Counted from the first letter of the stretch, positions 12,683-32,348 are shown. The stretch is DNA of 64,000 nucleotides from Gemmatimonadota bacterium (GCA_963666735.1 OY762926.1:2400001-2464000), one strand, 5' to 3'. Notes: a model not told the origin generated them from the sequence alone. A program made the numbers and translations.

Positions 12683-14138
12683 CTAGGCGGAACACTGGGC
12701 CCGGCGCGCGAACCCCTTGGACCGAAGCGCGAGCACGACGCGAAGCTGTGCCCCCTCGGAGATTTCCGCAGTCTGTGCGGAACTATCGAAGCCTCCGCAC
12801 AGGGCTCGGATCCGGTGGGAGCCCAGGGGGAGGCCGTCCAGCGAGAATGCGCCCGTGCGGTCCGTTACGGCGCGGAAATCCGTACCGTCCACGGTGATAC
12901 GTACGGCCTCGAGCGGCTGGCGCGTGACCTCGTTGACCACAAGACCTGTGACCGATCCCGGAGGAGTAACCGGCACGCTGAGCCTCACTTCGGCGCGCGC
13001 AATGGCCGACACCAGGGAAGGGCCGCTCGAGTGGGGGCCGTAAGCGGCCGAGAGTTCCACTTCCGCTCCGACAGGGAGGTCGCACAGCCGATACCGTCCC
13101 AACGAGTCCGTTCGCACGACAGTCTCCACGCGCTCGAGGCTCCCGGAAGCCGGGAACGAGGCGATCACATGCGCCGCCGGCAGTCTCACCTCCGTGACCT
13201 CGTCGTCCACAAACCCCTCCAGCGCCACTTCATCCGGGCGCCCGGCAGGCTCGCACAGGTTGACCTCGATCACCGGTATCTCCGCCTCCGCCGCCGTCCA
13301 GTTGGACCAGAGGATGATCGCGCCGCAGGTCATGGAGGACGCGTCCCAGGCGAAGAACGGGACTCTCGCGCCAGGTTGGTACAACTCCGCCGCGCCGATC
13401 TCGTACACGGACAGTTCTTCCAGCAGCGTCGGGGGCGGCCCCACCGGAGAACGGAAGGTTCCCGCCGGATTCAGGGAGTACGACCGGCTCGTTCCCCAGC
13501 CGTCTGTCGCCCCGATCGGCCTCCGGTCGAGGTATACCGGAATCTTCTCACAGCGCGACAACGGGGCACGGCCCTGGAGGGTCGACATGAAGTCGGAGAG
13601 CCGCACGAAACCGGCCTTGTTGGCCTCGATCCACTCAGGCTCGAGGAACACGCCCCAGCCCTCCTCCATCCGGTCGTAGAAGCCGGACTCGACCAACCGC
13701 GACGGACGCCCTTCCACGCCGACTTCCAGCGGATCCAGCGGGATCGCCCGCGGGGTTAGCCGAACATCCAGCCGTGGCGGAGTCCGCAGTCCGATTTCCA
13801 GCGGGACACTGAGTACGTCATAGCCGATGCGTCGTGCTCCGAGTACGTATTCGCCGGGCGCAATCTGAGCGAAGGTGAACGCACCGGTCCGGTCCCGTGA
13901 TCGTTTCCCGGGCTGAACCGGACGCGTCGGCGAGCCGGACCGTAGCGCCCTCGACCGGCGCTCCCGTTCCGTCGTCGATGACGGTCCCGGCGACCTCCAC
14001 GCCCTCCTGAGCCGCTACCTCCCGAGGCGCGAAACCGCTCGCCGCCCACACTGCCGCCGCCGCGAGCATCGACGCCGTTACGCTTCGCAACCACAAGTCG
14101 CTTCGAGTCAAAGCACGGTTCCCCGTTAGATCGAGCAC
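12683..14138 (-). pseudogene. Carboxypeptidase-regulatory-like/plug-domain protein with a single +1 frameshift
   Basis: Removing one base at about 13886 joins ...ETITGPD to GAFTFAQIAPGEYVLGARRIGY and on into the 344-aa ORF; could be a sequencing error. Confidence 0.75.
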
Positions 14139-14470
14139 TCGGCCCGCGACGCCAAAGCGGTCCGGCGGAGCTTGAGAACCACCGCCGAGCTTCCGCCTTC
14201 GGAAACTCCACGTCCTGCGCCGGACCCGAATATCCCCGGCACGTTGCCCGGATCCGGTAGGACCCCGGCGGAAGGTCCGCGAGAGAGAATCTGCCCGCAG
14301 CGTTGGTCACCGCACGGAACTCCGTATCGACCAGCACGATTCGTGCGCCCTCGATGAGTTCCGATGTCGCCCCGTTCAGGACGAGTCCGGTGATCGAAGC
14401 GGCAAACGCCTGGACGAGGAGAATAGACCATGGCGCCGCTCGTCAGTAGACCCCGCAATCCCCGCTCGCG
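14126..14470 (-). pseudogene. 3' remnant of a tandem paralogue of the 12683-14138 gene
   Basis: TEFRAVTNAAGRFSLADLPPGSYRIRATC and VSEGG..VVLKLR...RAECSI (split across frames) match the tail TDFRAVTDRTGAFSLDGLPLGSHRIRALC...RAQCSA. Confidence 0.7.
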
Positions 14471-14672
14471 TCACTTCCACGGAGAAACCGGCGTTGCGCT
14501 GAGTGCCGCCGTACAGCCTCCATCGGCGGCCACCCGGGTGCCTCGAGACCGACCACGACGACGAGGCCAACGGCACCGACCCCGCCACGTCACCCCAACC
14601 ACCGGTCATAAACCCGCCTTCGGTCGGTCGACTTATGCGGCAACGCAGGACCCGGGCTTAAGCAGTCACCGA

Positions 14673-14876
14673 TCAGGAAATATCGTAATAATAATAGTAC
14701 TCATCACAACACTCGCTGCCTCCTGGACACATCACCTCGCATACGCTGAGGCAAAGGGGGCCCCCATAATTACCACATGCCTGAGCTCTCGCCGTTTGCG
14801 GCGTCGCTCCGTGCATAACACCGAGCGCAACAACGGCTGTCAATATCGACCGCAGCATCAACTTCTTCCACGTCAT
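14673..14876 (-). CDS. Secreted cysteine-rich miniprotein P1 (67 aa, 6 Cys)
   Basis: AAGGAG RBS; signal peptide ending ARA|Q; mature QACGNYGGPLCLSVCEVMCPGGSECCDEYYYYYDIS; paralogue of P2. Confidence 0.8.
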   Translation of the reverse strand: MTWKKLMLRSILTAVVALGVMHGATPQTARAQACGNYGGPLCLSVCEVMCPGGSECCDEYYYYYDIS

Positions 14877-14965
14877 CGTCGACTCCTTCCCCTTTTTTCG
14901 TTTCGTCCGGACTTCCCAAACAGCGCGTTTGACAAGAACCCTTTCGCTACCTGTCCCGTGATATA

Positions 14966-16138
14966 TTATCCCTTCATCGCTTCGGCGTTTGGCCTCCACA
15001 CCTCTACACGCTCGACGCCGAAATCGTCTATCGTTTTTATCAGTAAGATCTCTGGTTCGATCTGCCATAACTTCGCTTCGACCGGGAGCGACGTTCTGCC
15101 AACCGCCCGGCCGGCCCGATCAACAACCGTCCAAGTGCGAGTCTCGTCATTGCGGAATCCAGCGTCTCCCACCCAAAGGTGTTCGCCGCTGGCGCTCCAT
15201 TGCAGCTGCGCATAAAACCGGCCCCGCTCGTTGGCGTCGTCAAGCGACTGTACGTCGCGGGCTCCATTCCACTCACCACGAGGGTGATCCGGGTCCTCCC
15301 ACGTCGCAAGCAGCTCGCCCTTCGCATCCCGAATTTCGATTGCCGGCCGGTCATTAGAACTCGTCGCAAATACTCCATCTCGCGAAGTTATCGCCGCCAC
15401 CGGACCTTCCGGCGCCGCTCGAAGCCGAAAACCCGTCGTTCCTGCGGAACTCTCCCACCACATGTCACCAACCGAAAACATCAACTCTGGATCTGCTCGC
15501 CCCCCTCCAACCCGCAGCACCCGTACGGAATCCCGTGCGATCCTCATCTCCCGCGGATCCAATCCGCTCGAAACCGCAATGAACATCTCCGAACCCGATC
15601 CCGCCCACATCTCGCTAGCTTGTTGGTGTGCGTCCGCCAGCCGAACAGACATTGATTGGTTATAGACTCCTGCTCCATCGAAAACCGATATGCGAGCTCC
15701 CAGCGCATCCAAGGCCAGAACCGAACCTCCATCACCAATCTCGATCGATCGCAGGTTTCTGAACTCTCCCGGTCCTTCACCCCCTTTACCAAACGAGTAC
15801 AGAAACTGCCCGGCGCCGGAATACACACGAATCTCGCTCGTGCCCGAATTCGCAACGAACAATGTTCCATCTTGAGTCCGGAAGCCATCTAGCGCTCGAA
15901 ACAACAGATACTCAGCCGGCCCTTCCGCTAGCCCGATCCGCATCGACGGCGCCCAAGATGTTACCGCATCAACGCGACGATCAATAGTGACAGTCGCCGG
16001 CTCAATCGTGGTCAATCTCTCCGACGTCGGTTCAGCACATGACGCAACCGCCATCGCTACGACAATGACGGTACAGCGACACATCATCGACATCCGCAGG
16101 GACGACGACGATCGGGCCAATCTTGTTAATTCATCCAT
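14966..16138 (-). CDS. 6-bladed beta-propeller (NHL-like) lipoprotein
   Basis: Lipobox VASC; FGKGGEGPGEF; C-terminal DDFGVERVEVWR; start overlaps DsbA stop (alternative start near 16093). Confidence 0.75.
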   Translation of the reverse strand: MDELTRLARSSSSLRMSMMCRCTVIVVAMAVASCAEPTSERLTTIEPATVTIDRRVDAVTSWAPSMRIGLAEGPAEYLLFRALDGFRTQDGTLFVANSGTSEIRVYSGAGQFLYSFGKGGEGPGEFRNLRSIEIGDGGSVLALDALGARISVFDGAGVYNQSMSVRLADAHQQASEMWAGSGSEMFIAVSSGLDPREMRIARDSVRVLRVGGGRADPELMFSVGDMWWESSAGTTGFRLRAAPEGPVAAITSRDGVFATSSNDRPAIEIRDAKGELLATWEDPDHPRGEWNGARDVQSLDDANERGRFYAQLQWSASGEHLWVGDAGFRNDETRTWTVVDRAGRAVGRTSLPVEAKLWQIEPEILLIKTIDDFGVERVEVWRPNAEAMKG

Positions 16139-16815
16139 GCAGTTTGGCTTCCTGGCGATAGGAGTTCGCGGAGCTCCAGCAGCCCTGGCGTACCGGTAAT
16201 GAGTCGCTGATCCACCACCATCGCAGGGGTGCCGATCAGAGATAGATACTGTGCTTCGATCAAAGTCGCAGCGATGCGGGACTTGTGAACCTCGCCATTG
16301 ACGCACGCACTGAAGCGAGGCAAGTCAGGGATGTCCGCTTGCCTCGCAAGTTCGTCGATTGACACAGTGGAAAGATGATCCTGAGATGCAAGAGCAATCC
16401 GGTGGAAGGTGCTGAAGCGCCCTTGGTCGCCGGCACACTCGGCGCCAAGTGCGGCCAAATAGGCGGGGTTACCGCGTATGGGGCGAACCAAGTGGCGCAG
16501 ATTTATGGTTAATGATGTCGAATCGTCGCGGATGACCGTATCGAGATTATTCCACAGTTCTCGACAAAAGGGACACAGGTAATTTGAGTAAAGGACGACC
16601 GCGATCGGACCAGTCCCGTGGGTTTGTGCGGCAGAATTGTTGCCGTAGATCTCCTGCGCCAAATCGAACTCTATATGTTCAACTGCATAAGTGGCCTCAT
16701 TGCCGGTGCGGAAAAACCCATACCAAATGACGACCGCCGCCAGCAGGAGTACCCAAAGGATTTTCGCGATGGTATTGAGAACTGTACGGCTTAGCCGCCG
16801 TATTGAGATGGGCAC
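16126..16815 (-). CDS. Membrane-anchored DsbA/thioredoxin-fold oxidoreductase
   Basis: N-terminal TM; YSNYLCPFC; AECAGDQGRF; cis-Pro loop GTP. Confidence 0.85.
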   Translation of the reverse strand: MPISIRRLSRTVLNTIAKILWVLLLAAVVIWYGFFRTGNEATYAVEHIEFDLAQEIYGNNSAAQTHGTGPIAVVLYSNYLCPFCRELWNNLDTVIRDDSTSLTINLRHLVRPIRGNPAYLAALGAECAGDQGRFSTFHRIALASQDHLSTVSIDELARQADIPDLPRFSACVNGEVHKSRIAATLIEAQYLSLIGTPAMVVDQRLITGTPGLLELRELLSPGSQTAWMN

Positions 16816-16909
16816 AGAACCCGCTACCGGCAGCTCGCGCTGGCTTCGTCGTACACCGATGGATCTACTCCTCGTTGAGGGGCGTGTCGGTAATGCTGGA
16901 CGTTGACAG

Positions 16910-17131
16910 TTAGTCGTCTATCTTTGGAAAGTAACTGTAATGCGACGTGCAGCACTTATCTTCGTAAGGTGGCGAGCACATCAGCAGGCACGTCTTGCGA
17001 CACATCTTACCGTCGTTGGCACCGCAAGATGCCGCTGCCGTGACGTTCTGCGCACCAAAGCCTAGGGCCACCATGGTCAGGACTGCGACAGTGAGAGTTG
17101 TGGGGATGAGGTGGCTCCACTTGATCCGCAT
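16910..17131 (-). CDS. Secreted cysteine-rich miniprotein P2 (73 aa, 6 Cys)
   Basis: AGGAG upstream; signal peptide; SCGANDGKMCRKTCLLMCSPPYEDKCCTSHYSYF shares the Cys framework of P1. Confidence 0.8.
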   Translation of the reverse strand: MRIKWSHLIPTTLTVAVLTMVALGFGAQNVTAAASCGANDGKMCRKTCLLMCSPPYEDKCCTSHYSYFPKIDD

Positions 17132-17199
17132 TGAGCATTTCTCCTGTCTTAGGGTTGACTTCAGCCGGCGACCGGCGACGGCGAGGAACTGAGGGTACT

Positions 17200-17229
17200 A
17201 TCCTAAGCAGGTGTGGCTACGGTTGTCAA
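17200..17229 (-). promoter_or_regulatory. Putative sigma70 promoter of the P2-DsbA-propeller-P1 operon
   Basis: TTGACA (17229-17224), 18 nt, TAGGAT (17205-17200). Confidence 0.55.
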
Positions 17230-17248
17230 GGGCTGCCGGGACTCGACG

Positions 17249-18720
17249 TGTCAAACCGCAATAGAAATGTCCGGGGTTAGAGCGCAGTAGAAATGTCCTC
17301 CCCCGGCGGTTCGGTTTTGCCCCGCTCCCGGGCCGGTTCGGTCGTGCGGGGCGGTTCCTTCTCGTTGGATATCTCTTCTCTCTCGCGGCGGAGGTCTCGG
17401 CGGGCGACGGCCTGCTGGACCGAGGCTTGGAAGTGCCTGCGCCACGGGTGGTCCGGAGCCGGCTTCGGGGGCGCGGGCCTCGGCTTCGCCGACTTGGCGG
17501 GCGCGTCGCCGGGGGAGGCGGGGGGGGCTCGGCATAAGGGTTCGAGCTCCAGGTAGCGCTCGCCGAAGCGGACCTCGCCGCCGAGGCGGCGCTCGACGAC
17601 GACCTAGTCGCCGGGGGCGATGCCGGCGGCGTCGCTCTCCGGGATCTGCCAGTGGTGGTTCCGGAACCGGACCGGGAGGTCGCGGGCCACGACGCGCCTC
17701 TCCGTCTCGGCGAAGAGCGCCTCGAGGTCCGCACCGGCCGGTAGCGGGCGGTGCGCGTCGCGGGGATCGGCGGGCTCCACGGCGAAGCGTTCGTTTCAGA
17801 ACGGGACCCAGTAGTCGGCGAGGAAGCGGTTGGCCCCCTCCAGCGTGGCGATCCCCTCCACCCGCATCTCCCTGACCAGCCGGTCCTGTGCCGTGCCGAA
17901 GCTGCGCTCGACCCGGCCCTTGGCCTGAGGCGAGCCCGCGAGGATCACCTCGACGTCCAGCTCGCCCAGTGCCCGGGCGATGATCGTGTCCGTGCGCTCC
18001 TCCTTCTTCGACAGCCACTGCCCGAAGTGTCCGGCGTGGTCGGTGTACACCGCCACCGGGCGGCCGTGGCGGCGCAGGTAGCCGATGATCGCCCGCCGGT
18101 TCTCCGCCCCGTCGTCGCGCGCCGCGAAGCGGGCCATGAGCAGCCGGCTCGTCGCGTCGTCGTGGATCGAGATCAGCGTCTGGCTCCCCGGCAACCTCTC
18201 CTCCAGCCACGGATGCACCGAGCTGTCCCACTGCCCCGGCTCGCCCAGCGCCGCCCGCCTCGGACGCCGGCGGCGGTGCTTCGCGCGCTTGCGGCGACGC
18301 TCCCACAGCCCGGCCTCCAGCATCCAGCACCGCAGCGTCTCCGCGCTCAGACGCAGCCCGAAGCGTCTTTCCAGGTGTTCCGCAAGCAGCGTCGGCCCGA
18401 AGTCCCGGTACAGCGGATCCCTCGCAACCTCCAGCGCCCGCTCCCGATCTTCCGCGCGCAGCGCCCGGTTCGACCGCCGTCCCCGCAGGCCGTGTACCGC
18501 CGCCGCATCGCCCTCCGCCTCGAACCTCCGGCGCAACCGGCGAAAATGCCGCCGAGTCACGCCGATCCGCTCCGCTCCCGCAGCGACCGTCAGCACTCCC
18601 TCGCTCACCTGTCTCAGCACCGAGATGCGATCCCGCTCCCTCAGACTCAGGTCCATCCGCTCCCCTCCCGGATCCCGTTCCGCCGTTGACCGAACATGGA
18701 CCGTAAGAGGACATTTCTAC
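17249..18720 (-). mobile_element. ISNCY/IS1202-type insertion sequence, inactivated
   Basis: End TGTCAAACCGCAATAGAAATGTCC with repeated TAGAAATGTCC; inverted GGACATTTCTAC at the other end, cut by the IS1380 element. Confidence 0.8.
17277..18656 (-). pseudogene. ISNCY-family DDE transposase with two in-frame stops
   Basis: HTH, QWDSS, DDATSR, YTDH, SPQAKGRVER; TGA at 17796-17798 and TAG at 17604-17606; frame continues to TAA at 17277. Confidence 0.85.
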
Positions 18721-20457
18721 CTCGGATCCTGCGTTGGTGCATAATCGGACGGCCGGAGGCGCGATTATGACCTGCGGCTGTGGCGATTTGGCGCGGGTGG
18801 TGGCGTTTTCGGGGCCGGACCGGGCCTCGGTGGGGGGCCGGCGGGGTTCGGGAGGGACCCCGGGCGGCGCGCGGAGACACGGGAACGGGGCGCCGCCGCG
18901 CGGCGCCTTCGCAAGGCCGGGTCCGGGGTCGGTCAGGCGGGCGCGGGCGGCGGGAGGCCGTTCTCGATGGTGCGGAGCGCCCGCCGCGGGAGGCCGAGGG
19001 CCGACTCGCCGCGCGCGAACCCGAGCGAGGTTCGGCGGGCGTGGGAGGTGATCCTGGCCGGGGCGCGCAGCAGGCGCAGCCGGATGCCGCGCGGCTGCGC
19101 GGTGCCCCAGCGGCCGCCGAGGCAGTTCGCGCGCAGGATGTGGAGGAGTTGGTAGGCGAGCGCGGCGAGGCCCCACAGGAGGGCGTTGCCGCCGAGGTCG
19201 TCGACCGCGGTGCGCCCGGCCGAGAGCGGGCCCAGCTCCTCGATCCGCTGTTCGACGACCGCGCCCGCGTTGTAGGCGCGCCACGCGTCGACGGGGCCGA
19301 CGCCCTCGATGTTGGTGAGAACGTCGGCGCTCATCGCGGTCTCCCACGCCGCGAGGTCGAGCTCCCCCTCCTCCGGCCCGATCCGTCTCCGCCTCTCGAC
19401 CGAGAGAAGCCGCGTCCCCCACAGCTCGCCGGAGGCGGTCCTCAACTCCCGGTCCCCGGCCCCGTCGGCGGCGGCCGTCTCCCAGGCGCCCCGGAAGCCG
19501 TCGAGCCAGCCGTGCCGCGGCACCTTGAGCAGATAGGAGACGCCGAGCTCCTCCATGCTCGCCGCGATGCGCTTGGAGAAGAACCCCTTGTCCAGCCGCA
19601 CGGTGATGTCCCGCACCCCCGCCTCCCTCAGGCGGGCCACCAGCCCGGCCAGCCACGCCTCGGCTCCCCCGGCCGTGTGCGCGTTGCCCGGCCGCCAGCG
19701 CACCCCGAGGCAGTCGCCCGTCTCCAGGACGTAGGCCAGCAGCGGATGGTGCGAGGGACGGCCCGGCTTCTTCGGATTGTAGCCCTTCTCCGCCCCGGCC
19801 TGTCTCAGCCCGTAGCGCACCACCACGGTCGAGTCCATGACGACCGTCGCCGACCGGGGCGCCCCGCCCGCCATCTCCCAGCGCCGCCGCACCATCCGCC
19901 ACGGCAGCTCGTCCAGAAGCGGCGACAGCACGGCCGCCGAGCGCCGCAGCCAGCGCCCGAACGTGGCCGGGTGCGGCACCCGCCTCCAGCCGAAGATGCG
20001 GCGTACCCCCCGCCGCTCGAGAAACGGCAGGTCGTCCATCACCCCGCCGCCGTACAGGAGCAGCGCCACCCACAACTCGACCATCAGCGACGGCCGGTAG
20101 CGGCCGGGGACGTTCCCGGTCCGGTCGTCGATCCAACGGCCCAGCCCCAGCGCGTCCCACAGCCTCCGGACCACGACCAGGCCGCCCGCGTCGGTGATCC
20201 GTACGCCGCCGCCGCGGACCCCCGGCGCCGCCGCCGATCCTTGCACGTGCGGGCGCGATCCGGTATAGTCGTTTCCGCGCACCATTCGGGTGTCCTCCGT
20301 TCCGGGGTGAACTCTTGTCCAGTCCCTCTGAACGTAGGGCCCCGGGCGGTGCGTTTCCATAGTCCGACACTATGCTCTCACTATCGTCAAGGCTTCCGCG
20401 GCCCGGCTACGGCCGCCCTCCCGGACGAGCCCCGCGCCAACGATCGCAGGATCCGGG
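18721..20457 (-). mobile_element. IS1380-family insertion sequence (1737 bp)
   Basis: Terminal inverted repeats CTCGGATCCTGCGTTGGT / CCCGGATCCTGCGATCGT (15/18 match) flanking a single transposase. Confidence 0.85.
18933..20360 (-). CDS. IS1380-family transposase
   Basis: MDSTV..YG, GYNPKKPGRPSHHPLL, RPGN, VRLDKGF, YN..A.VEQRIEEL; start uncertain. Confidence 0.85.
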   Translation of the reverse strand: METHRPGPYVQRDWTRVHPGTEDTRMVRGNDYTGSRPHVQGSAAAPGVRGGGVRITDAGGLVVVRRLWDALGLGRWIDDRTGNVPGRYRPSLMVELWVALLLYGGGVMDDLPFLERRGVRRIFGWRRVPHPATFGRWLRRSAAVLSPLLDELPWRMVRRRWEMAGGAPRSATVVMDSTVVVRYGLRQAGAEKGYNPKKPGRPSHHPLLAYVLETGDCLGVRWRPGNAHTAGGAEAWLAGLVARLREAGVRDITVRLDKGFFSKRIAASMEELGVSYLLKVPRHGWLDGFRGAWETAAADGAGDRELRTASGELWGTRLLSVERRRRIGPEEGELDLAAWETAMSADVLTNIEGVGPVDAWRAYNAGAVVEQRIEELGPLSAGRTAVDDLGGNALLWGLAALAYQLLHILRANCLGGRWGTAQPRGIRLRLLRAPARITSHARRTSLGFARGESALGLPRRALRTIENGLPPPAPA

Positions 20458-20531: not shown

Positions 20532-20765
20532 ATGCAGATGAACAAGGTCGCCTTCCGTTGGAATCGCCTGCTTCAGCTCTTGGGCCTGCTCCTGATCGCC
20601 GTGTTGTCAGTTGGCCCCGAAGCCGCGCGAGCTCAAGAAGCAGGCGACGACGACTGCTTTCAGTTATACGGTTGCGAAGTCTGTCCCGCTCAAGACCCGG
20701 ACTGCATCACATATGTCTGCCCGGTCGGTGACCCCAGGGGTGTGGGGATCCTCTGCATAGGATGA
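20532..20765 (+). CDS. Secreted cysteine-rich miniprotein P3 (75-77 aa, 6 Cys)
   Basis: GGAG RBS; signal peptide ending ARA|Q; C-x5-C-x2-C-x6-C-x4-C-x11-C; ATGA overlap with next gene. Confidence 0.8.
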   Translation: MQMNKVAFRWNRLLQLLGLLLIAVLSVGPEAARAQEAGDDDCFQLYGCEVCPAQDPDCITYVCPVGDPRGVGILCIG

Positions 20766-22561
20766 CTGCTGGATCGCGCAGTCCAGGGGATAAAGGGGAT
20801 GGTCGGTGGAACCGGGTCGTCAACATTGCGATCTTGGGAGTGCTCGCCATCCTGCTGTTCAATCCGTCGGGTGTGGTGGGAAGCTGGATCATCGCAGAGT
20901 ACAAAGAATGGCAGGAGCAGCGGCGAATCGCCCTGAACTGGCCGGAGTTGACAAGCGCATCGAGTTATCTTGGTCCGTCGCCTCTACAGGATGGTGCCGT
21001 CATAGTGGAGTTTGTGGACTATGACTGTCCCGCTTGTAAGGCGGTGGCTCCCGATGTCCTGGAGGGTGCTCGCGGCCGCGGCGTTACGGTGATTATGCGC
21101 CACGTCCCCTCTGAACGCGGTGGTCCGGCTGCAACGGAAGCGGCTCTCGCGGCGATCTGCGCAGAGCAGTACGGTCTGTTCCCGGAGGCGCATGGCGCGC
21201 TGATCTCGGAGGAGATGTGGCTGGAGACTCGAGATTGGGCGGGCTTCGCCGTCAACTTGGGAATTGGCGACCCAGAGTCGTTCGGCAATTGTGTGAGCGA
21301 GGAAGAAGCACCGCGGCGCCGTCTCGCCCGCGACGTGGAGTTGGCGGAAGTTCTGCGGATTCCCGGGACGCCGACCTTTGTCTCAGCCGAAGAGTTGCAC
21401 TTGGGGGCGCCGGGACTGGCGTCGGCGTTGGCCGCGGCTGCCCCGACGCGGCAGCACGCCCCGCGTCGTCCCTCGACCGACCCGGTCTTCGATTCGTCGG
21501 AGCACGGGGATCTTTCCGAGCGGCTGCTGTCCGTCAGAGCTGGCTTCTTCACGCCGGACGGTGGTCTCGTTGTGGTGGACCGCACCGAGATCCACATCAT
21601 CGACATGGCGTCCGGGGAGCATCGAGTGGTGGGGCGCAAGGGAGGGGGGCCGGAGGAATTCAGCCACATATCGCGGGCGGTTCGCACGTCGGAGGGTGTC
21701 GCCGTTAGCGACTACCTCAGACGTCGTATCGTGTCGATTGGGCGCGATGGCGGTTTTGGCCACTCCCAAAGCTACTCGGATGTTCCGCTCAACAGCCTTC
21801 AACCGCAGCTGGTAGCCCGTCATCCAGACGGCAGCACGGTCTTCCGCGACGTCGCGCCGCGCGTGCGGCAATCCGAGGGTCGATACTGGCGGCCAGCTCG
21901 GTACGTGGCGGTGGATGCCGACGGCGGACTTCGGGTGGTCGCGGAGACACCAGGCAACGAACGGTACTCCGACACGAGAGACAACAGTCCCGTGTTGTTT
22001 GGTCACCGGACATTGGAAGCGGCGACCGCAGACCGTCTCGTCGTCGCCGAAACTGACCGGGGATCCATCTCGGTACTCGACTGGAGCGGCGTGCCGGTCG
22101 CCGGTATTCCGATGCCGGCCAGCGTTAGGCTGTCCGCGGACCAGGTGCGGATGGGGCGAGAGTCCGCGGCGTCGCAGCGGCGGCAGGAAAGGGGGTGGCT
22201 CGTGGAAGCCGCGTTGGACGGCAGGTTCCCGTTCCCGCCGTCGGCCGTAGAGGAGCGACTCCTCTCCTTTTCGCCGGACTGGCCGGCAAACGAAGTGGCG
22301 CCCCCGATCGATGCGATGCTGACGGACTTCGATTCGAGACTCTGGGTGAGAGATTATCGGCTTCCCGGCCAGGATAGCGTAACGTGGCGAGTGTGGGACA
22401 TCGACCGGGAGCGGCTGCTGTTCACGGCGAGCATGGATGGTGAGGACACGTTGCTCGACGCGCGAGGCGACGTAGTGCTGCTGCGCCGATTGGATCCATT
22501 CGACGCTCACCAGGTTGTGGTTACTCCGCTTGGCCCCGAGCAGGCCAATGGGGGGACTTAG
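20762..22561 (+). CDS. Fusion of membrane-anchored DsbA-like domain and 6-bladed beta-propeller
   Basis: TM; EFVDYDCPAC; AICAEQYG; GTPTF; then GRKGGGPEEF, LWVRDY, DPFDAHQVVV. Confidence 0.8.
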   Translation: MTAGSRSPGDKGDGRWNRVVNIAILGVLAILLFNPSGVVGSWIIAEYKEWQEQRRIALNWPELTSASSYLGPSPLQDGAVIVEFVDYDCPACKAVAPDVLEGARGRGVTVIMRHVPSERGGPAATEAALAAICAEQYGLFPEAHGALISEEMWLETRDWAGFAVNLGIGDPESFGNCVSEEEAPRRRLARDVELAEVLRIPGTPTFVSAEELHLGAPGLASALAAAAPTRQHAPRRPSTDPVFDSSEHGDLSERLLSVRAGFFTPDGGLVVVDRTEIHIIDMASGEHRVVGRKGGGPEEFSHISRAVRTSEGVAVSDYLRRRIVSIGRDGGFGHSQSYSDVPLNSLQPQLVARHPDGSTVFRDVAPRVRQSEGRYWRPARYVAVDADGGLRVVAETPGNERYSDTRDNSPVLFGHRTLEAATADRLVVAETDRGSISVLDWSGVPVAGIPMPASVRLSADQVRMGRESAASQRRQERGWLVEAALDGRFPFPPSAVEERLLSFSPDWPANEVAPPIDAMLTDFDSRLWVRDYRLPGQDSVTWRVWDIDRERLLFTASMDGEDTLLDARGDVVLLRRLDPFDAHQVVVTPLGPEQANGGT

Positions 22562-22569
22562 CTAGCTAG

Positions 22570-24813
22570 TTAGATCACCTGGAACGTCACCCACTGGGAG
22601 ACCCAAACTGCAGTCAGCTCATCGCTGTTGCTCGCGGGCCGGAAGCGCATCTGCTCGACGACTTCCGCGGCGGCGCGGTCCAGCGCCTCGTTGCCGCTGC
22701 TCGTCTTCACTCTGTGGTTGACAACGGCACCCGACAGGTCGACGTAGAGCCACATCTCGACCCGGCCACCAATGCCCGCTTGCTTCAGGTCGCTCGGATA
22801 AGCTCTCTCGATCGCCTGCTGTATCTCGCCCCCATTCTGAAGAGCCGGGGGCGTGTCGTACCCGACGAAGGTCGGCTGGTCCGCCGGGGCATCGCTGTCT
22901 GCGGCGCCGCCCTTGGTCGTGATTGCAACCACGCCATTCCTGGCACGCTCACCGTACATCTCGACAGCCCGCTCGCCCTTGACGACGTCGACATGGTCGA
23001 TATCGAGAGCCTGGAGGTCTGCCAAGCTCGTGCCCTCGGATAGCATGACTCCGTCGACGATGATGAGCGGCGCCTCGTCCATTGCCGGCGTGACGAAAAT
23101 ATCCGGGGCCCCATCCTGGTCGAAATCCGCGATCAAGTTCTCACTCTCGTGGTCCGTGCTGTCCATCGCGCCGGTCTTGGTCGTGATTTCGACCACGCCA
23201 TTCCTGGCGCGCTCGCCGTACAGATCGACCGCCCGCTCGCCCTTGACGATCTCGACGTGGCCGATGTCGAGGGCCTGTATGTCTCCCAGGCTCGCGCCCT
23301 CGGATAGCATGACTCCGTCGACGATGATCAACGGATTCAGCGCCTGTCGGACCGTTGGGTGCAGCCACAGATCCGCATCGTCCCCGTCAACGGGCCGGCC
23401 GTTGAGAAGGATGTCGCGCAACTCCAAGGGTTCCTCGGTCTGAGGAGGACCGCCGTCAACTGGGATCATGTCCCCAACCTCGAAGGTGACCCACTGGGAG
23501 ACCCAGACGTCGGTCGGCTGGTCACGGTTCATCGCGGGCTCGAAGCGCATCGTCGCGACCACATCGGCGGCGGCGGCGTCCAGAGCATCGTGGCCGCTGC
23601 TCATCTTGAGTTCGGAGTTCCGGACCACCCCGGACGCGTCGAGGTACAGCCACACTTCGACTCGGCCGCCGATTCCCGCCGTCATGAGGTCCCGCGGGTA
23701 GGCGTCCTGGAGGGCTAGCATCACAGCCCCGGCGTTCTGCAGAACCGGCGGCCTGTCGTACGCGATGAAGGACGGCCGGTCACCGCGCGCCATGACCTCC
23801 TCGCCGGGCACCAGCGGAGGCGCCCATTCGCTGGATTCGGACGGCGGTGTCACCGTCGCGGCGGGCGGTTCCGGCGCGTTCACGGAAGTCTCGGGTCCGG
23901 GGCAGCCGAGCACGAAGAGGACGGCGACCATGACCACCCCCGAAGCCCCCAGCGTTCGGAGCGGACGCATGCTGGCCGCCGGCTCGGTCATGCGGCGCAG
24001 GCGTCGTTCCACGGCCGGCTTGCGTTCGGCGAAGGCGGCGGCCGCGAGCAGCGGGCCGGAGACGCGGCTGCCCACGGTGAGGAGGGCGTCCGCGTAGTCG
24101 CGCGGCGACTCCCCCCGCCGGAGCACGCGACGGTCGCAGTCGAACTCGATCGCGAGCCGCAGCCGGGACAGCTGCCACCACACGAGCAGGTTCCAGGGCA
24201 TCAGCACGAGGGCGGTGACCGCCGCGGCGAAGAGCCGATGGTCGCCGGCGCGCTGATGCTCCCGCTCGTGGAGAAAGACGAGGCGGAGCAGCCTGTCCTC
24301 GAGTTCGGGGATCCACTTCGGCATCACGACGATCGAGCGGCGGATGCCGACGACGGCCGGTCCCCGCTCGTCGGAGATCATGACCGGCGATCCCGCGACG
24401 CGGCCCGGCGTCCATGTCCGCATCTCCGACCGCAGCCGACCGTAGATCCGGCCCAGGTAGCCGACCATGGCGACGGCCAGGAGCACCCAGCCCCACCCCA
24501 GCACCGTGCCGACGGCCGCCCCATCGAAACCCCCACCGGCCTCCGCGGCCATCGCGGGCAGTTCCGGCGCCGCGGCGACGATCGCCGGACCGCTCAACCC
24601 GACCGCCGGCGCGGCGGACGACACCCCGAAGCCGGGGAGGAGTCCGGGAGCGAGGAAGGCGACGACGGGCACCGTCACGGATCCGGCGACCGCCGCGAAC
24701 CACGCCCAGCGCACGGGCTTGCGGAAGTGGCCCAGCGCCCGCTCCGAGGCGAGGGCGGCCAGGGCGAGGAGTCCCGAAATCAACAGGCAGTATCCGATCC
24801 AGGCGATGACCAT
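22570..24813 (-). CDS. BlaR1/MecR1 (M56) metallopeptidase fused to two TonB C-terminal and two plug-like repeats
   Basis: HEREH, PWN, EFDCD; two GIGGRVE.WLY...SSG..ALD.AA domains; two PLIIVDGV...YGERARNGVV.ITTK repeats. Confidence 0.9.
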   Translation of the reverse strand: MVIAWIGYCLLISGLLALAALASERALGHFRKPVRWAWFAAVAGSVTVPVVAFLAPGLLPGFGVSSAAPAVGLSGPAIVAAAPELPAMAAEAGGGFDGAAVGTVLGWGWVLLAVAMVGYLGRIYGRLRSEMRTWTPGRVAGSPVMISDERGPAVVGIRRSIVVMPKWIPELEDRLLRLVFLHEREHQRAGDHRLFAAAVTALVLMPWNLLVWWQLSRLRLAIEFDCDRRVLRRGESPRDYADALLTVGSRVSGPLLAAAAFAERKPAVERRLRRMTEPAASMRPLRTLGASGVVMVAVLFVLGCPGPETSVNAPEPPAATVTPPSESSEWAPPLVPGEEVMARGDRPSFIAYDRPPVLQNAGAVMLALQDAYPRDLMTAGIGGRVEVWLYLDASGVVRNSELKMSSGHDALDAAAADVVATMRFEPAMNRDQPTDVWVSQWVTFEVGDMIPVDGGPPQTEEPLELRDILLNGRPVDGDDADLWLHPTVRQALNPLIIVDGVMLSEGASLGDIQALDIGHVEIVKGERAVDLYGERARNGVVEITTKTGAMDSTDHESENLIADFDQDGAPDIFVTPAMDEAPLIIVDGVMLSEGTSLADLQALDIDHVDVVKGERAVEMYGERARNGVVAITTKGGAADSDAPADQPTFVGYDTPPALQNGGEIQQAIERAYPSDLKQAGIGGRVEMWLYVDLSGAVVNHRVKTSSGNEALDRAAAEVVEQMRFRPASNSDELTAVWVSQWVTFQVI

Positions 24814-24817
24814 GTCC

Positions 24818-25189
24818 CTACTCCTTCGAGCTGAGGCGTTCGTCCACCAGGCCGCGCAGGTTCTCGAGGTCCTCCTTCGAGAGCGCCCGGTCGGAGACGA
24901 GATGCGTGAGCAGCAGTTCCGGCGACCCCTGGAACATCTTCTGAACCAGCCGGCGCACCGCGCTCGCCCCGGCGCATTCCCGCCCGACGAGCGTGTGATA
25001 GCGGTAGGCCTTCCCCTCCTGGGTGTGCCCCACGTACCCCTTCTCCTCCAGCGTCCGGAGGATCGTGAGCACGGTCGTGTAGGCCAACTCATCGCCGAGG
25101 CGGTCCTGCACCTCCGCCACGGTCGAGGCCCCTCTCTCCCAGAGCACCGCCATGAGGTCGAGTTCCCGAGTCGTGAACTTGATCTCCAC
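24818..25189 (-). CDS. BlaI/MecI/CopY-family repressor
   Basis: RELDLMAVLW, LAYTTVLTILRTLEEKGYV; upstream of BlaR1-like gene. Confidence 0.92.
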   Translation of the reverse strand: MEIKFTTRELDLMAVLWERGASTVAEVQDRLGDELAYTTVLTILRTLEEKGYVGHTQEGKAYRYHTLVGRECAGASAVRRLVQKMFQGSPELLLTHLVSDRALSKEDLENLRGLVDERLSSKE

Positions 25190-30843: not shown

Positions 30844-31080
30844 ATGAGTGTGAGAACCAAGCTGTCGTTTCTTGGAGTTGTTCTCGCGGCGCTACTCTGG
30901 GGCGGAGGCGTCGTTGCAGGTCAAATTCGGGCACCGGTGGCCGAGCTGGATCGGACAGATGACGCGGCTAGACCGCTATGCTGTGCACTGGCACATCGGC
31001 CAGATTGTTGCACGGTCGCGATCAGATGCCTGCCGGGCGACACGTGCTGCACGTGTGGGTCTCCTTGCCGTCCAGGCTAG
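30844..31080 (+). CDS. Secreted cysteine-rich miniprotein P4 (78 aa, 9 Cys)
   Basis: AGGAGG RBS; signal peptide; spacer; CC-x7-CC-x5-C-x5-CC-x-C-x3-C. Confidence 0.75.
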   Translation: MSVRTKLSFLGVVLAALLWGGGVVAGQIRAPVAELDRTDDAARPLCCALAHRPDCCTVAIRCLPGDTCCTCGSPCRPG

Positions 31081-32348
31081 TCGCGCTAACCGCCTGCGCC
31101 TTCCTTGCCGGAGGCGCCGTCGCAGTAGCGGGCTGCGACCCCGGCGGCCGTGGCGAATGGGCGGGAACGGAGTACGACAGCGTCGGCGTCAGGGTCGTGG
31201 CCAATCCCCTGGTTGCCCTCTGGACCCGAAGCACTGCCTGGCGCGTCGAGCGCGACCTCACAATTGGGACGGACACTGGTCTGCCGGAATACGAGTTCGG
31301 TCGGGTTGTGGATGTGGATGTGGGTCGCGATGGGATGATCTACGCGCTGGACCAGATGTCAGCTCAGGTGCGGGTCTTTGATTCAAGGGGTGAACATCTC
31401 TTCTCCTTTGGCGGCTTGGGGGAAGGCCCTGGGGAACTGAGCAATCACGACCCGCTCGGTGCCCTGGCGGTGCTTGCCGATTCCGGGGGCGACTTGCTCG
31501 TCGTTGATCGCGTAAACAACCGACTGAATCGGTTCACGGGCGATGGCGAGTTTCTGGGATATGTGGACTTGGGTGTCCAGAGCGGCGAGGTCGAGCCCAT
31601 CGCTTCGGGGATCCTGCCGAATGGCGACTATCTCGTGCATCGCGTGGTCCGCGATCGGTGGAACGGAATCCTGCGGGTCGACCCACATGAAGGTCCAACC
31701 CTGGACACGCTATTGGCGTTCTCCCTCCAGCCGAGTGCGTGGGGACTCACACGGAGGAACGAGCAGGGACGCACGGAGGCCCTCATGCACTCACCGCTTT
31801 GGTCGATATTACCGGACGGCCGGCTGGTAGCCGGACGATCCGATCAGTCGTCCTTTCAGGTGTGGGGACCCGGCAAGCGGCTGAAAATGGTGGTAAGGAG
31901 ACATGAGCCCAACCCCATTCTCTCCGAATCGGGCCAGGAACGCTATCTGGATCGCCTGATGGAGATCTGGGAGACGATGTTCAGAGACGAGGGGGAGTCG
32001 GAGGAATGGATAGCTCAGCAAGTCCGGCGCGGACGGCAAGTCTACATACCTCCAGTGCGACTACCGGCGGTTACGGGCTTCGCGGGGGGACCCGAGGGGA
32101 CGATCTGGGTGAGGGCGGCGAGACCGGTCGAACTGATGACCTCACACGTCCTCTACGCACGTCCTCCCGTGCGCGAGTTCTGGTCACGGAATTGGGAGGT
32201 CTTCTCCGCCGACGGTCGGCTCCTGGGTACTGTTGTGCTGCCCCCGAGATTCACTCTTTTCAGGATTCGGGGGGATTACATCTACGGCGTGGAAGAGGAC
32301 GATTTCGATGTTCAGCGTGTTGTACGCTTACGGCTCCAGACTCACTGA
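31053..32348 (+). CDS. 6-bladed beta-propeller lipoprotein
   Basis: Lipobox VAGC; DSVGVRVVAN; FGGLGEGPGEL; W.VFSADGRLLG.V.LP; EDDFDVQRVVRLR; start uncertain, overlaps P4 end. Confidence 0.8.
   Translation: MWVSLPSRLVALTACAFLAGGAVAVAGCDPGGRGEWAGTEYDSVGVRVVANPLVALWTRSTAWRVERDLTIGTDTGLPEYEFGRVVDVDVGRDGMIYALDQMSAQVRVFDSRGEHLFSFGGLGEGPGELSNHDPLGALAVLADSGGDLLVVDRVNNRLNRFTGDGEFLGYVDLGVQSGEVEPIASGILPNGDYLVHRVVRDRWNGILRVDPHEGPTLDTLLAFSLQPSAWGLTRRNEQGRTEALMHSPLWSILPDGRLVAGRSDQSSFQVWGPGKRLKMVVRRHEPNPILSESGQERYLDRLMEIWETMFRDEGESEEWIAQQVRRGRQVYIPPVRLPAVTGFAGGPEGTIWVRAARPVELMTSHVLYARPPVREFWSRNWEVFSADGRLLGTVVLPPRFTLFRIRGDYIYGVEEDDFDVQRVVRLRLQTH

Follow-up and report, generated by a model that had tools for sequence, protein, structure and literature searches.

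Described systems closest to the cassette

The described systems closest to the locus treated here are the mau cluster of methylamine dehydrogenase, the bacteriocin clusters that have a thiol-disulfide oxidoreductase of their own, the NHLRC2/SOQ1 proteins, a group of Bacteroides propellers, and the six-cysteine peptides of the knottin, beta-defensin and conotoxin kinds. The locus is a cassette of four genes on the minus strand of a 64,000-nucleotide stretch of DNA (the window) from a Gemmatimonadota bacterium (GCA_963666735.1 OY762926.1:2400001-2464000), whose genome is a single contig of 3.98 Mb and is 94% complete. Two small peptides with six-cysteine cores, P2 and P1, are encoded at the ends of the cassette (positions 14,673 to 17,131), and the genes of a DsbA-like protein and of a DUF5128 beta-propeller lie between them. 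The P1/P2 family is real and undescribed, it belongs to a cassette of peptide, oxidoreductase and propeller, and a complex predicted between P2 and the propeller is well supported. No description of the cassette or the family was found in the literature searched, which comprised full texts with few subscription journals and no supplements, so that a mention in a genome-mining table is possible.

In methylamine dehydrogenase, the large subunit is a propeller and the small subunit carries a tryptophan-derived cofactor. The six disulfides of the enzyme require the thioredoxin-fold protein MauD, according to the available text of a preprint (bioRxiv 10.64898/2026.03.05.709764). The mau cluster is like the cassette in combining a small exported disulfide-rich chain with a thioredoxin-fold protein dedicated to it and with a propeller to which the small chain binds, which in the cassette is a predicted contact. 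The cores of P1 and P2, however, are only about 35 residues long with probably three disulfides, they have no conserved pair of tryptophans, and the cassette contains neither a cofactor-forming gene nor a MauE gene. Its propeller differs in being a predicted six-bladed lipoprotein, and the layout of the cassette is shared by many unrelated peptide families.

Bacteriocin clusters with a thiol-disulfide oxidoreductase of their own, which include the two-peptide class IIb (thermophilin 13 cluster, PMC10059821), also have small peptide genes, an adjoining gene for a CxxC oxidoreductase and a possible immunity partner. Unlike them, the cassette has no C39 ATP-binding cassette transporter and no kinase/regulator pair, and its leaders are of the Sec type and not of the double-glycine type. 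P1 and P2 would be hairpins and not GxxxG helices, their cores are neutral or acidic, and one peptide is enough in half of the cassettes. Identification as a two-peptide class IIb bacteriocin was rejected, because 12 of 23 cassettes contain a single peptide and no transporter is conserved among 73 flanking open reading frames (ORFs).

NHLRC2 and SOQ1 combine a thioredoxin-like domain with a six-bladed NHL propeller (PMC6107167, available text), and a fused version is encoded 3.6 kb away in the window. In the cassette, the two are separate genes, the oxidoreductase domain is of the DsbA type with a plain CxxC, and the CC(I/V)NC (CCINC) motif is absent. Seven bacterial NHLRC2/SOQ1 homologues have no conserved neighbours according to the same text, whereas the pair in the cassette always travels with a peptide gene. 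Two exported Bacteroides propellers of the DUF5128/DUF4221 type, 3s9j (Z 19.3, root mean square deviation (rmsd) 4.0, 301 residues aligned) and 4raa (Z 17.9, rmsd 4.4, 297 aligned), share the fold class and PF17170 with the propeller of the cassette. Their entries name no ligand, whereas a co-encoded peptide ligand and its binding mode are predicted for the cassette.

The P1/P2 cassette

The order of the genes along the minus strand is P2, DsbA-like, propeller and P1. P2 (73 residues, 16910..17131) begins with a signal-peptide-like region, residues 1 to about 33, which is followed by a six-cysteine core starting at Cys36. The core has a net charge of 0 and is predicted to form a beta-hairpin with strands 43-51 and 60-68. 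P1 (67 residues, 14673..14876, ATG at 14876) consists of signal-peptide-like residues 1 to about 31, a six-cysteine core starting at Cys33 with a net charge of -5, and an aromatic C-terminal strand. Read by eye, the N-termini of both peptides run over about 30 residues from basic through hydrophobic to Ala-x-Ala-like. The DsbA-like thioredoxin-fold protein (16126..16815, minus strand) has a hydrophobic N-terminal anchor, a CxxC at residues 81-84, a Thr-Pro loop and two extra cysteines, 127 and 171; both PF13462 and PF01323 exceed the Pfam cut-off. The propeller (14966..16138, minus strand) scores 29.7 bits against PF17170 (DUF5128), the cut-off of which is 22.9, and is a predicted lipoprotein with a lipobox-like Cys34. 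Its true start is possibly Met16 or Met18.

An earlier reading of the window (the original prediction) placed P1 and P2 on either side of a DsbA-propeller pair, which is correct, and the pattern that it gave for them, CG-x3-G-x2-C-x3-C-x2-MC-x5/7-CC-x3-Y-x-Y-(Y/F), matches both exactly. As a signature of the wider family the pattern is too narrow in one position, the methionine before the fourth cysteine, which occurs in only 4 of 50 family rows. The charge contrast drawn between the peptides holds for the acidic P1 (-5), but P2 was called Lys/Arg-rich with some exaggeration: basic residues number 4 and acidic ones 3 in its quoted core, and mature P2 has a net charge of 0. The signal-peptide-like stretch ahead of both cores is not part of the original prediction. 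The view that both are real genes is borne out by the conservation of their order in two congeneric genomes (G003 and G017) and by a ratio of nonsynonymous to synonymous substitution rates (dN/dS) of about 0.2. A single conserved scaffold with an aromatic strand also stands, and the export signal together with the adjoining DsbA gene makes three disulfides likely.

Short-read contigs from two runs, perhaps of the source sample, show 0 differences from positions 13500-17275. A strict regular expression for the cysteine and glycine spacing retrieves 2 of the 57,050 six-frame ORFs of the genome, P1 and P2; a looser one retrieves 3, the extra ORF resembling a GC-rich shadow frame.

Predicted complex of P2 and the propeller

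The propeller is modelled as a six-bladed NHL-like fold (predicted local distance difference test (pLDDT) score 83.9) with a protruding extended hairpin, residues 218-241, the predicted pairing site of the peptide strand. Its best fold match is the NHL domain of Mei-P26 (Z 22.6, rmsd 3.1, 264 aligned). P2 is modelled as a hairpin with pLDDT 73-88 at residues 41-70 and 65 overall.

For mature P2 docked on the propeller, three runs of complex prediction gave scores of 0.82, 0.82 and 0.80, against 0.28 for the best of 3 controls. The runs agree in at least 97% of the contacts, and the pLDDT of the partners is at least 82. The score mark applied is reached by 116 of 157 solved pairs and by 2 of 215 mismatched ones, a calibration that is rough here because own alignments were used. 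Structure searches turned up no similar complex, which makes memory an unlikely source of the prediction. The prediction supports binding, short of proof, and it makes the propeller itself the predicted main partner of the peptide, a possibility absent from the original prediction.

The tightest contacts in the model are those of peptide residues 61-67 with propeller residues 236-241, where the Y-x-Y strand would be added to a strand of the propeller. Tyr65 and Tyr67 of P2 meet Pro195/Arg196 and His171. All residues of P2 from 51 to 67 touch the propeller, including the variable loop between Cys4 and Cys5. The interface contains the basic residues Arg81, 130, 196, 238 and 240 and Lys356 and 368, so that an Arg/Lys-rich top face is opposed to peptides which are mostly acidic or neutral. 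Pro195 is present in 9 of 10 propellers that are close to the query or lie beside family peptides, six of the ten being close kin, and in 0 of 4 more distant ones. Overall, conservation at the interface does not exceed that of the remainder of the propeller. It is quite probable that P1 and P2 are ligands of the co-encoded propeller.

The predicted complex would also suit a peptide that stays bound as a small subunit. As a swappable cap locked by disulfides, it would complete an envelope protein of two chains that serves in recognition or adhesion, and P1 and P2 would be two versions of the cap. This arrangement is rather unlikely. It agrees with a cassette that has no conserved exporter or regulator, with the equal evolutionary rates of peptides and propeller, and with the short inter-blade insert in the propellers of the family (38-59 residues in 15 of 16 and 69 in one), which is long in many other propellers of the genome. 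However, the variable loop contacts the propeller instead of facing outward, two genomes carry the peptide without a propeller, and throughout the genome the length of the insert shows no difference with or without a peptide (p = 0.82). The same comparison leaves unsupported the proposal that the peptide is a substitute for a built-in helical lid.

An enzymatic role, in which the propeller modifies the peptide or both chains together constitute a cofactor-bearing enzyme like methylamine dehydrogenase, is very improbable. The fold is shared by six-bladed propeller enzymes (amidating lyase 3fw0, Z 17.4, rmsd 4.1, 270 aligned), and the dependence of the six disulfides of methylamine dehydrogenase on MauD is a parallel (bioRxiv 10.64898/2026.03.05.709764). 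Yet NHL domains without enzymatic activity match the fold best, the P1 and P2 cores have neither tryptophan nor a C-terminal glycine, the neighbourhood has no conserved gene for a redox cofactor or for modification, and the top faces of cognate propellers from distant loci diverge (19-23% identity at the interface positions).

The peptide family

A search with the single sequence of P2 returned only P2 itself, and the family emerged only with a profile. With a profile of 7 rows, a search of 1.84 billion representatives yielded 46 proteins, of which 40 were new, and a word-based profile search found 8, 1 of them new. Of 30 clusters of family records looked up, the 2 that have an organism name are of Gemmatimonadaceae and Longimicrobium. 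A larger profile matched 30 of 401 genomes of the phylum; 26 of these contain true members upon inspection, and as 15 candidates were scored per genome, these counts are lower bounds. Three of the four matches that were dropped (G407, G444 and G476) are due to chance, and the fourth (G120) is the signal region of a different peptide family. A match in G098 within the search of the genus proved to be a shadow frame. Further members, the lack of which would have counted against the original prediction, do exist.

Six cysteines are present in 40 of the 46 proteins, four in 4, five in 1 and eight in 1. The six-cysteine members are spaced C-x7-C-x3-C-x3-C-x(2-8)-CC with small variants, the gap between the third and fourth cysteines being three or four residues. 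In an alignment of 50 family rows, Cys1 and Cys2 are invariant and 45-46 rows retain both glycines. The strand at the C-terminus is aromatic, with tyrosine at position 67 in 44 rows and an aromatic residue at position 68 also in 44. The core is net negative in 31 rows and above +2 in none, the median charge being -1. The peptides of two genomes with altered DsbA genes, G457 and G198, retain six cysteines. The longest contig is of 7713 bases for both the six-cysteine protein P0026 and the four-cysteine protein P0028, which may be a paralogue pair on one contig.

Cys4 and Cys6 are absent together in 3 of 3 four-cysteine members that have the same inner spacing. This joint loss, the only basis used for the disulfide connectivity, suggests a bond between Cys4 and Cys6, the other two bonds then probably joining Cys1 to Cys2 and Cys3 to Cys5. 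Knottins, beta-defensins and conotoxins resemble the family in having a signal peptide and a six-cysteine core. In knottins, the adjacent pair is Cys3-Cys4 and the bonds are 1-4, 2-5 and 3-6, which does not suit a family whose adjacent pair is Cys5-Cys6 and whose Cys4 and Cys6 are lost together. In a fold search for matches to solved knottins with the P2 model, which included the signal helix and had pLDDT 65, the best Z was 3.0 and none reached 5. Beta-defensins end in CC, as do the 40 six-cysteine proteins among the 46 of the family, but they have about nine residues between Cys3 and Cys4, bonds 1-5, 2-4 and 3-6, and a cationic surface; the short Cys3-Cys4 gap, the joint loss and the median core charge of the family do not agree with this assignment. 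Cysteine-stabilized alpha-beta defensins have a CxxxC in a helix bonded to a CxC in a strand. This class, including actinodefensin (NF038042), was rejected because the family has CC and not CxC, its model has a strand, and the actinodefensin model draws hits from just 2 of the 50 rows (best E 0.002). Cysteine spacing and joint loss thus do not fit the knottin or defensin membership that had been proposed. The P1/P2 family is further set apart from these peptides and from conotoxins by purifying selection and by a bacterial operon with a predicted cognate binder.

An already characterised domain was looked for among the 50 rows, and scans of Pfam, NCBIfam and the sequences of the PDB gave no real match. 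The small NVEALA proteins (PF14055) match 0 of the 50 at E 0.05. An Atlas search gave only sub-threshold leads to small secreted proteins (0.78-0.80), and nothing for a second core. Judged by sequence comparison, the family is not matched to any named one and is spread across one phylum.

Evolution and composition of the cassettes

Conotoxin-type superfamilies have a conserved signal, a hypervariable core and dN/dS above 1. Between the genome of the window (G000) and G003, the one genome pair compared, dN/dS is 0.20 for P2, 0.19 for P1, 0.23 for DsbA and 0.21 for the propeller, and the peptide cores are 66-74% identical, against 76-78% for the signal regions. The conotoxin-like diversification that had been suggested is not found. 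P1 and P2 are only 25-27% identical to each other, with saturated synonymous sites. They are old paralogues under ordinary purifying selection, unlike a fast-diversifying venom-like family. In a tree, which bears on whether the two arose by one local duplication, the P2-type peptides form a clade (99/95) that the P1-type peptides do not join, although a joint grouping is not rejected by the approximately unbiased test (p-AU 0.21).

Within the genus, the cassette is found in 3 of 36 genomes, and it is kept whole in G003 and G017. Orthologues of P1 occur in both (76% identical in G003). Those of P2 are 71% identical in G003 and 49% in G017 (second copy 42%). In G017, a third, lone peptide copy of the P2 type lies 4 kb away among transposase genes.

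The number of peptides was counted in 23 genomes with wider flanks (20 regions plus G000, G003 and G017), in some of which the contig ends near the cassette. Two family peptides are present in 11 and one in 12. The bracketing order occurs in 7 of the 23, in only two genera, and tandem peptides occur in 4; the second peptide may be upstream, downstream or in tandem. The original prediction offered, as one possibility, that P1 and P2 act as a two-component pair. A joint action drawn by opposite charge was not upheld; its probability is now slight indeed. Both peptides are retained in all 3 genomes of the genus that carry the cassette, two peptides are present in nearly half of the cassettes, and the bracketing recurs in a second, distant genus. 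Against a pair are the 12 cassettes with a single peptide, the lone third copy in G017, the varying position of the second peptide, and the core charges of the three syntenic cassettes, 0/-5, 0/-6 and -1/-2, which preserve no complementarity. A second peptide that is optional, free in position and not kept opposite in charge argues for alternative ligands over an obligate pair.

A thioredoxin-fold gene is present in the cassettes of all 26 true-member genomes, and the propeller gene adjoins in 24. Six of the 26 have six-cysteine peptides together with a DsbA-type gene. In the other 20, a four-cysteine core, in some cases with extra tail cysteines, lies beside a small Thr-Pro protein with one invariant cysteine. 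This partner has no Pfam match; its profile weakly matches structures of the TlpA/DsbE type (E 0.0025-0.005), and the profile by which its genes were called draws on 11 of these loci. The 73 flanking ORFs of 21 loci include no conserved fourth gene, and the flanking genes are unrelated between loci. The genome of the window has one VKOR gene, and at its completeness of 94% no match to DsbB was found.

In a quick tree of 102 propellers, those associated with four-cysteine peptides form one clade (11 of 11, Shimodaira-Hasegawa-like approximate likelihood ratio test (SH-aLRT) 99), and 5 of 6 associated with six-cysteine peptides are in another clade (98), adjacent to four peptide-less propellers of G000. 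The match between peptide subfamilies and propeller clades could also be explained by shared descent of linked genes. It would be expected as well if the peptide were a pheromone stabilised by disulfides and sensed by the propeller lipoprotein, the numerous peptide-less propellers listening to other strains. A gene for an M56 peptidase-TonB protein upstream of the cassette in G000 and G003 is in line with signalling, as are the sigma factors or LuxR-type regulator encoded close to a few of the other loci. Nevertheless, the 21 loci scanned share no conserved regulator or membrane transducer, a Pfam scan shows no domain for signalling in the propeller, and a signal-receptor pair is improbable.

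Surroundings of the cassette

The G+C content of the cassette is 56% against 68%, and insertion sequences or transposase genes adjoin it. In the window, at least two insertion sequences, with a helix-turn-helix transposase fragment and a DDE transposase, occupy about 17250-20400 between two cassettes. The first, which is present in multiple copies in the read data, begins about 110 nt upstream of P2. The M56 peptidase-TonB gene has the same orientation as the cassette in both genomes (window 22570-25092, minus strand, in G000; L026 4037-7214, plus strand, in G003); in G000, a fusion cassette and the insertion sequences intervene between it and the P1/P2 cassette. Just downstream of P1 (12683-14138, minus strand) is a gene with a carboxypeptidase-regulatory-like domain, apparently split over frames.

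Shine-Dalgarno-like AGGAG sequences can be read on the minus strand 6 nt upstream of the ATG of P1 (14883..14887), where the relatives are also purine-rich, and 9 nt upstream of P2 (17141..17145), where the relatives have a similar stretch. A weak sigma-70-like promoter candidate (17200..17229, minus strand, 10/12 matches) precedes the cassette, 1 being found against 1.2 expected by chance, and scans of the cassette for promoters and terminators were at chance level.

Peptide-propeller pairs elsewhere in the genome

The genome contains 95 propeller ORFs, a few of them fragments, and only about 22 have an upstream cysteine-rich ORF with a signal peptide, these peptides belonging to many unrelated families. 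Under a strict signal-plus-cysteine definition, there are 26 peptide ORFs, and 17 of them are no more than 1 kb from a propeller; 2000 random placements gave 0.9 on average and 5 at most.

Several propeller loci are in or near the window. An unrelated six-cysteine signal-peptide ORF (77 residues) directly precedes a DsbA-propeller fusion of 599 residues (20532-22561, plus strand), which shows that oxidoreductase and propeller can be a single chain. A nine-cysteine signal-peptide ORF (78 residues) is followed by another propeller gene at 30844-32348 (plus strand), and at 42548-43834 (minus strand) a propeller ORF has no peptide that could be found. Seven tandem propeller ORFs, for which no peptide gene was found, are located 9-18 kb before the window (C1:2382504-2391171), and three of them are sister to the clade of cognate propellers. 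Elsewhere on the contig, three acidic signal-peptide ORFs that are related to one another, have an aromatic strand and end in a cysteine (C1:353667-353891, 515918-516181 and 2744456-2744722) each precede a propeller, and the propellers concerned fall into one clade. At C1:2901680-2903379, a propeller is preceded by a tandem of two cysteine-rich peptides from another family, so that two peptides per propeller extend beyond the P1/P2 family.

There is an even chance that Gemmatimonadota hold a large modular lock-and-key system, absent from the papers searched, of many unrelated families of exported disulfide-locked mini-proteins, each with its own oxidoreductase and its own clade of six-bladed propeller lipoproteins that grip by strand addition, with about 25 keys and 95 locks in one genome, for recognition, competition or host interaction.

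Proposed function

P1 and P2 would be exported and then oxidised to three-disulfide beta-hairpins by the DsbA-like protein encoded between them, a step suggested by the gene order, and the VKOR of the genome may recycle the DsbA. The peptide is predicted, for P2, to dock on the top face of the propeller lipoprotein, its Y-x-Y strand being added to the protruding hairpin. P1 would occupy the same site as P2, the two being alternative ligands and not halves of a heterodimer. In the leading reading, the propeller would serve as a cognate carrier or immunity protein that holds or neutralises an effector peptide. Binding combined with this effector and immunity/carrier role falls slightly short of an even chance. 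It is favoured by the gene order, the buried variable loop, the mobility of the cassette and the surplus of peptide-less propellers. The presence in few genomes of the genus, the low G+C content, the transposases, the unrelated flanks and the excess of propellers over upstream peptides point to mobile cargo of a competition type.

Several observations weigh against this proposal. The controls of the complex prediction were unrelated proteins and included no paralogous propeller, and the prediction covers P2 only. Two genomes fit poorly with an essential immunity gene: G089 has the peptide and a thioredoxin-like gene with no propeller in 13 kb, and G078 has no propeller within 1.5 kb. The DsbA has CxxS in G457 (L095 9122-10000) and is broken in G198, where the part with the active site is absent (L096 8324-8725). 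No exporter that would take the peptide out of the periplasm is conserved among the flanking ORFs, nor is a protease or regulator. In charge, the neutral or acidic cores differ from cationic membrane-active peptides, and the purifying selection between the two genomes compared bears no sign of an arms race.

The peptides would offer a first handle on the function of the DUF5128-type propellers, of which there are 95 ORFs in a 4-Mb genome. With a predicted ligand of 35-40 residues that can be synthesised and an interface predicted at the level of residues, two purified components are enough to test the role of the propeller. The family also adds a predicted hairpin scaffold with three disulfides, new among bacteria, of which a version with two disulfides occurs naturally. 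The oxidoreductase differs accordingly, being a CxxC DsbA in the one case and a single-cysteine thioredoxin-like protein in the other, and these variants are relevant to the folding and use of disulfide-rich peptides in bacteria. Should they be effectors or signals, the peptides would represent an abundant interaction system of a little-studied phylum. If the lock-and-key reading is true, it would provide a class of ligands for DUF5128 propellers and a repertoire of natural disulfide-rich binders with matched receptors.

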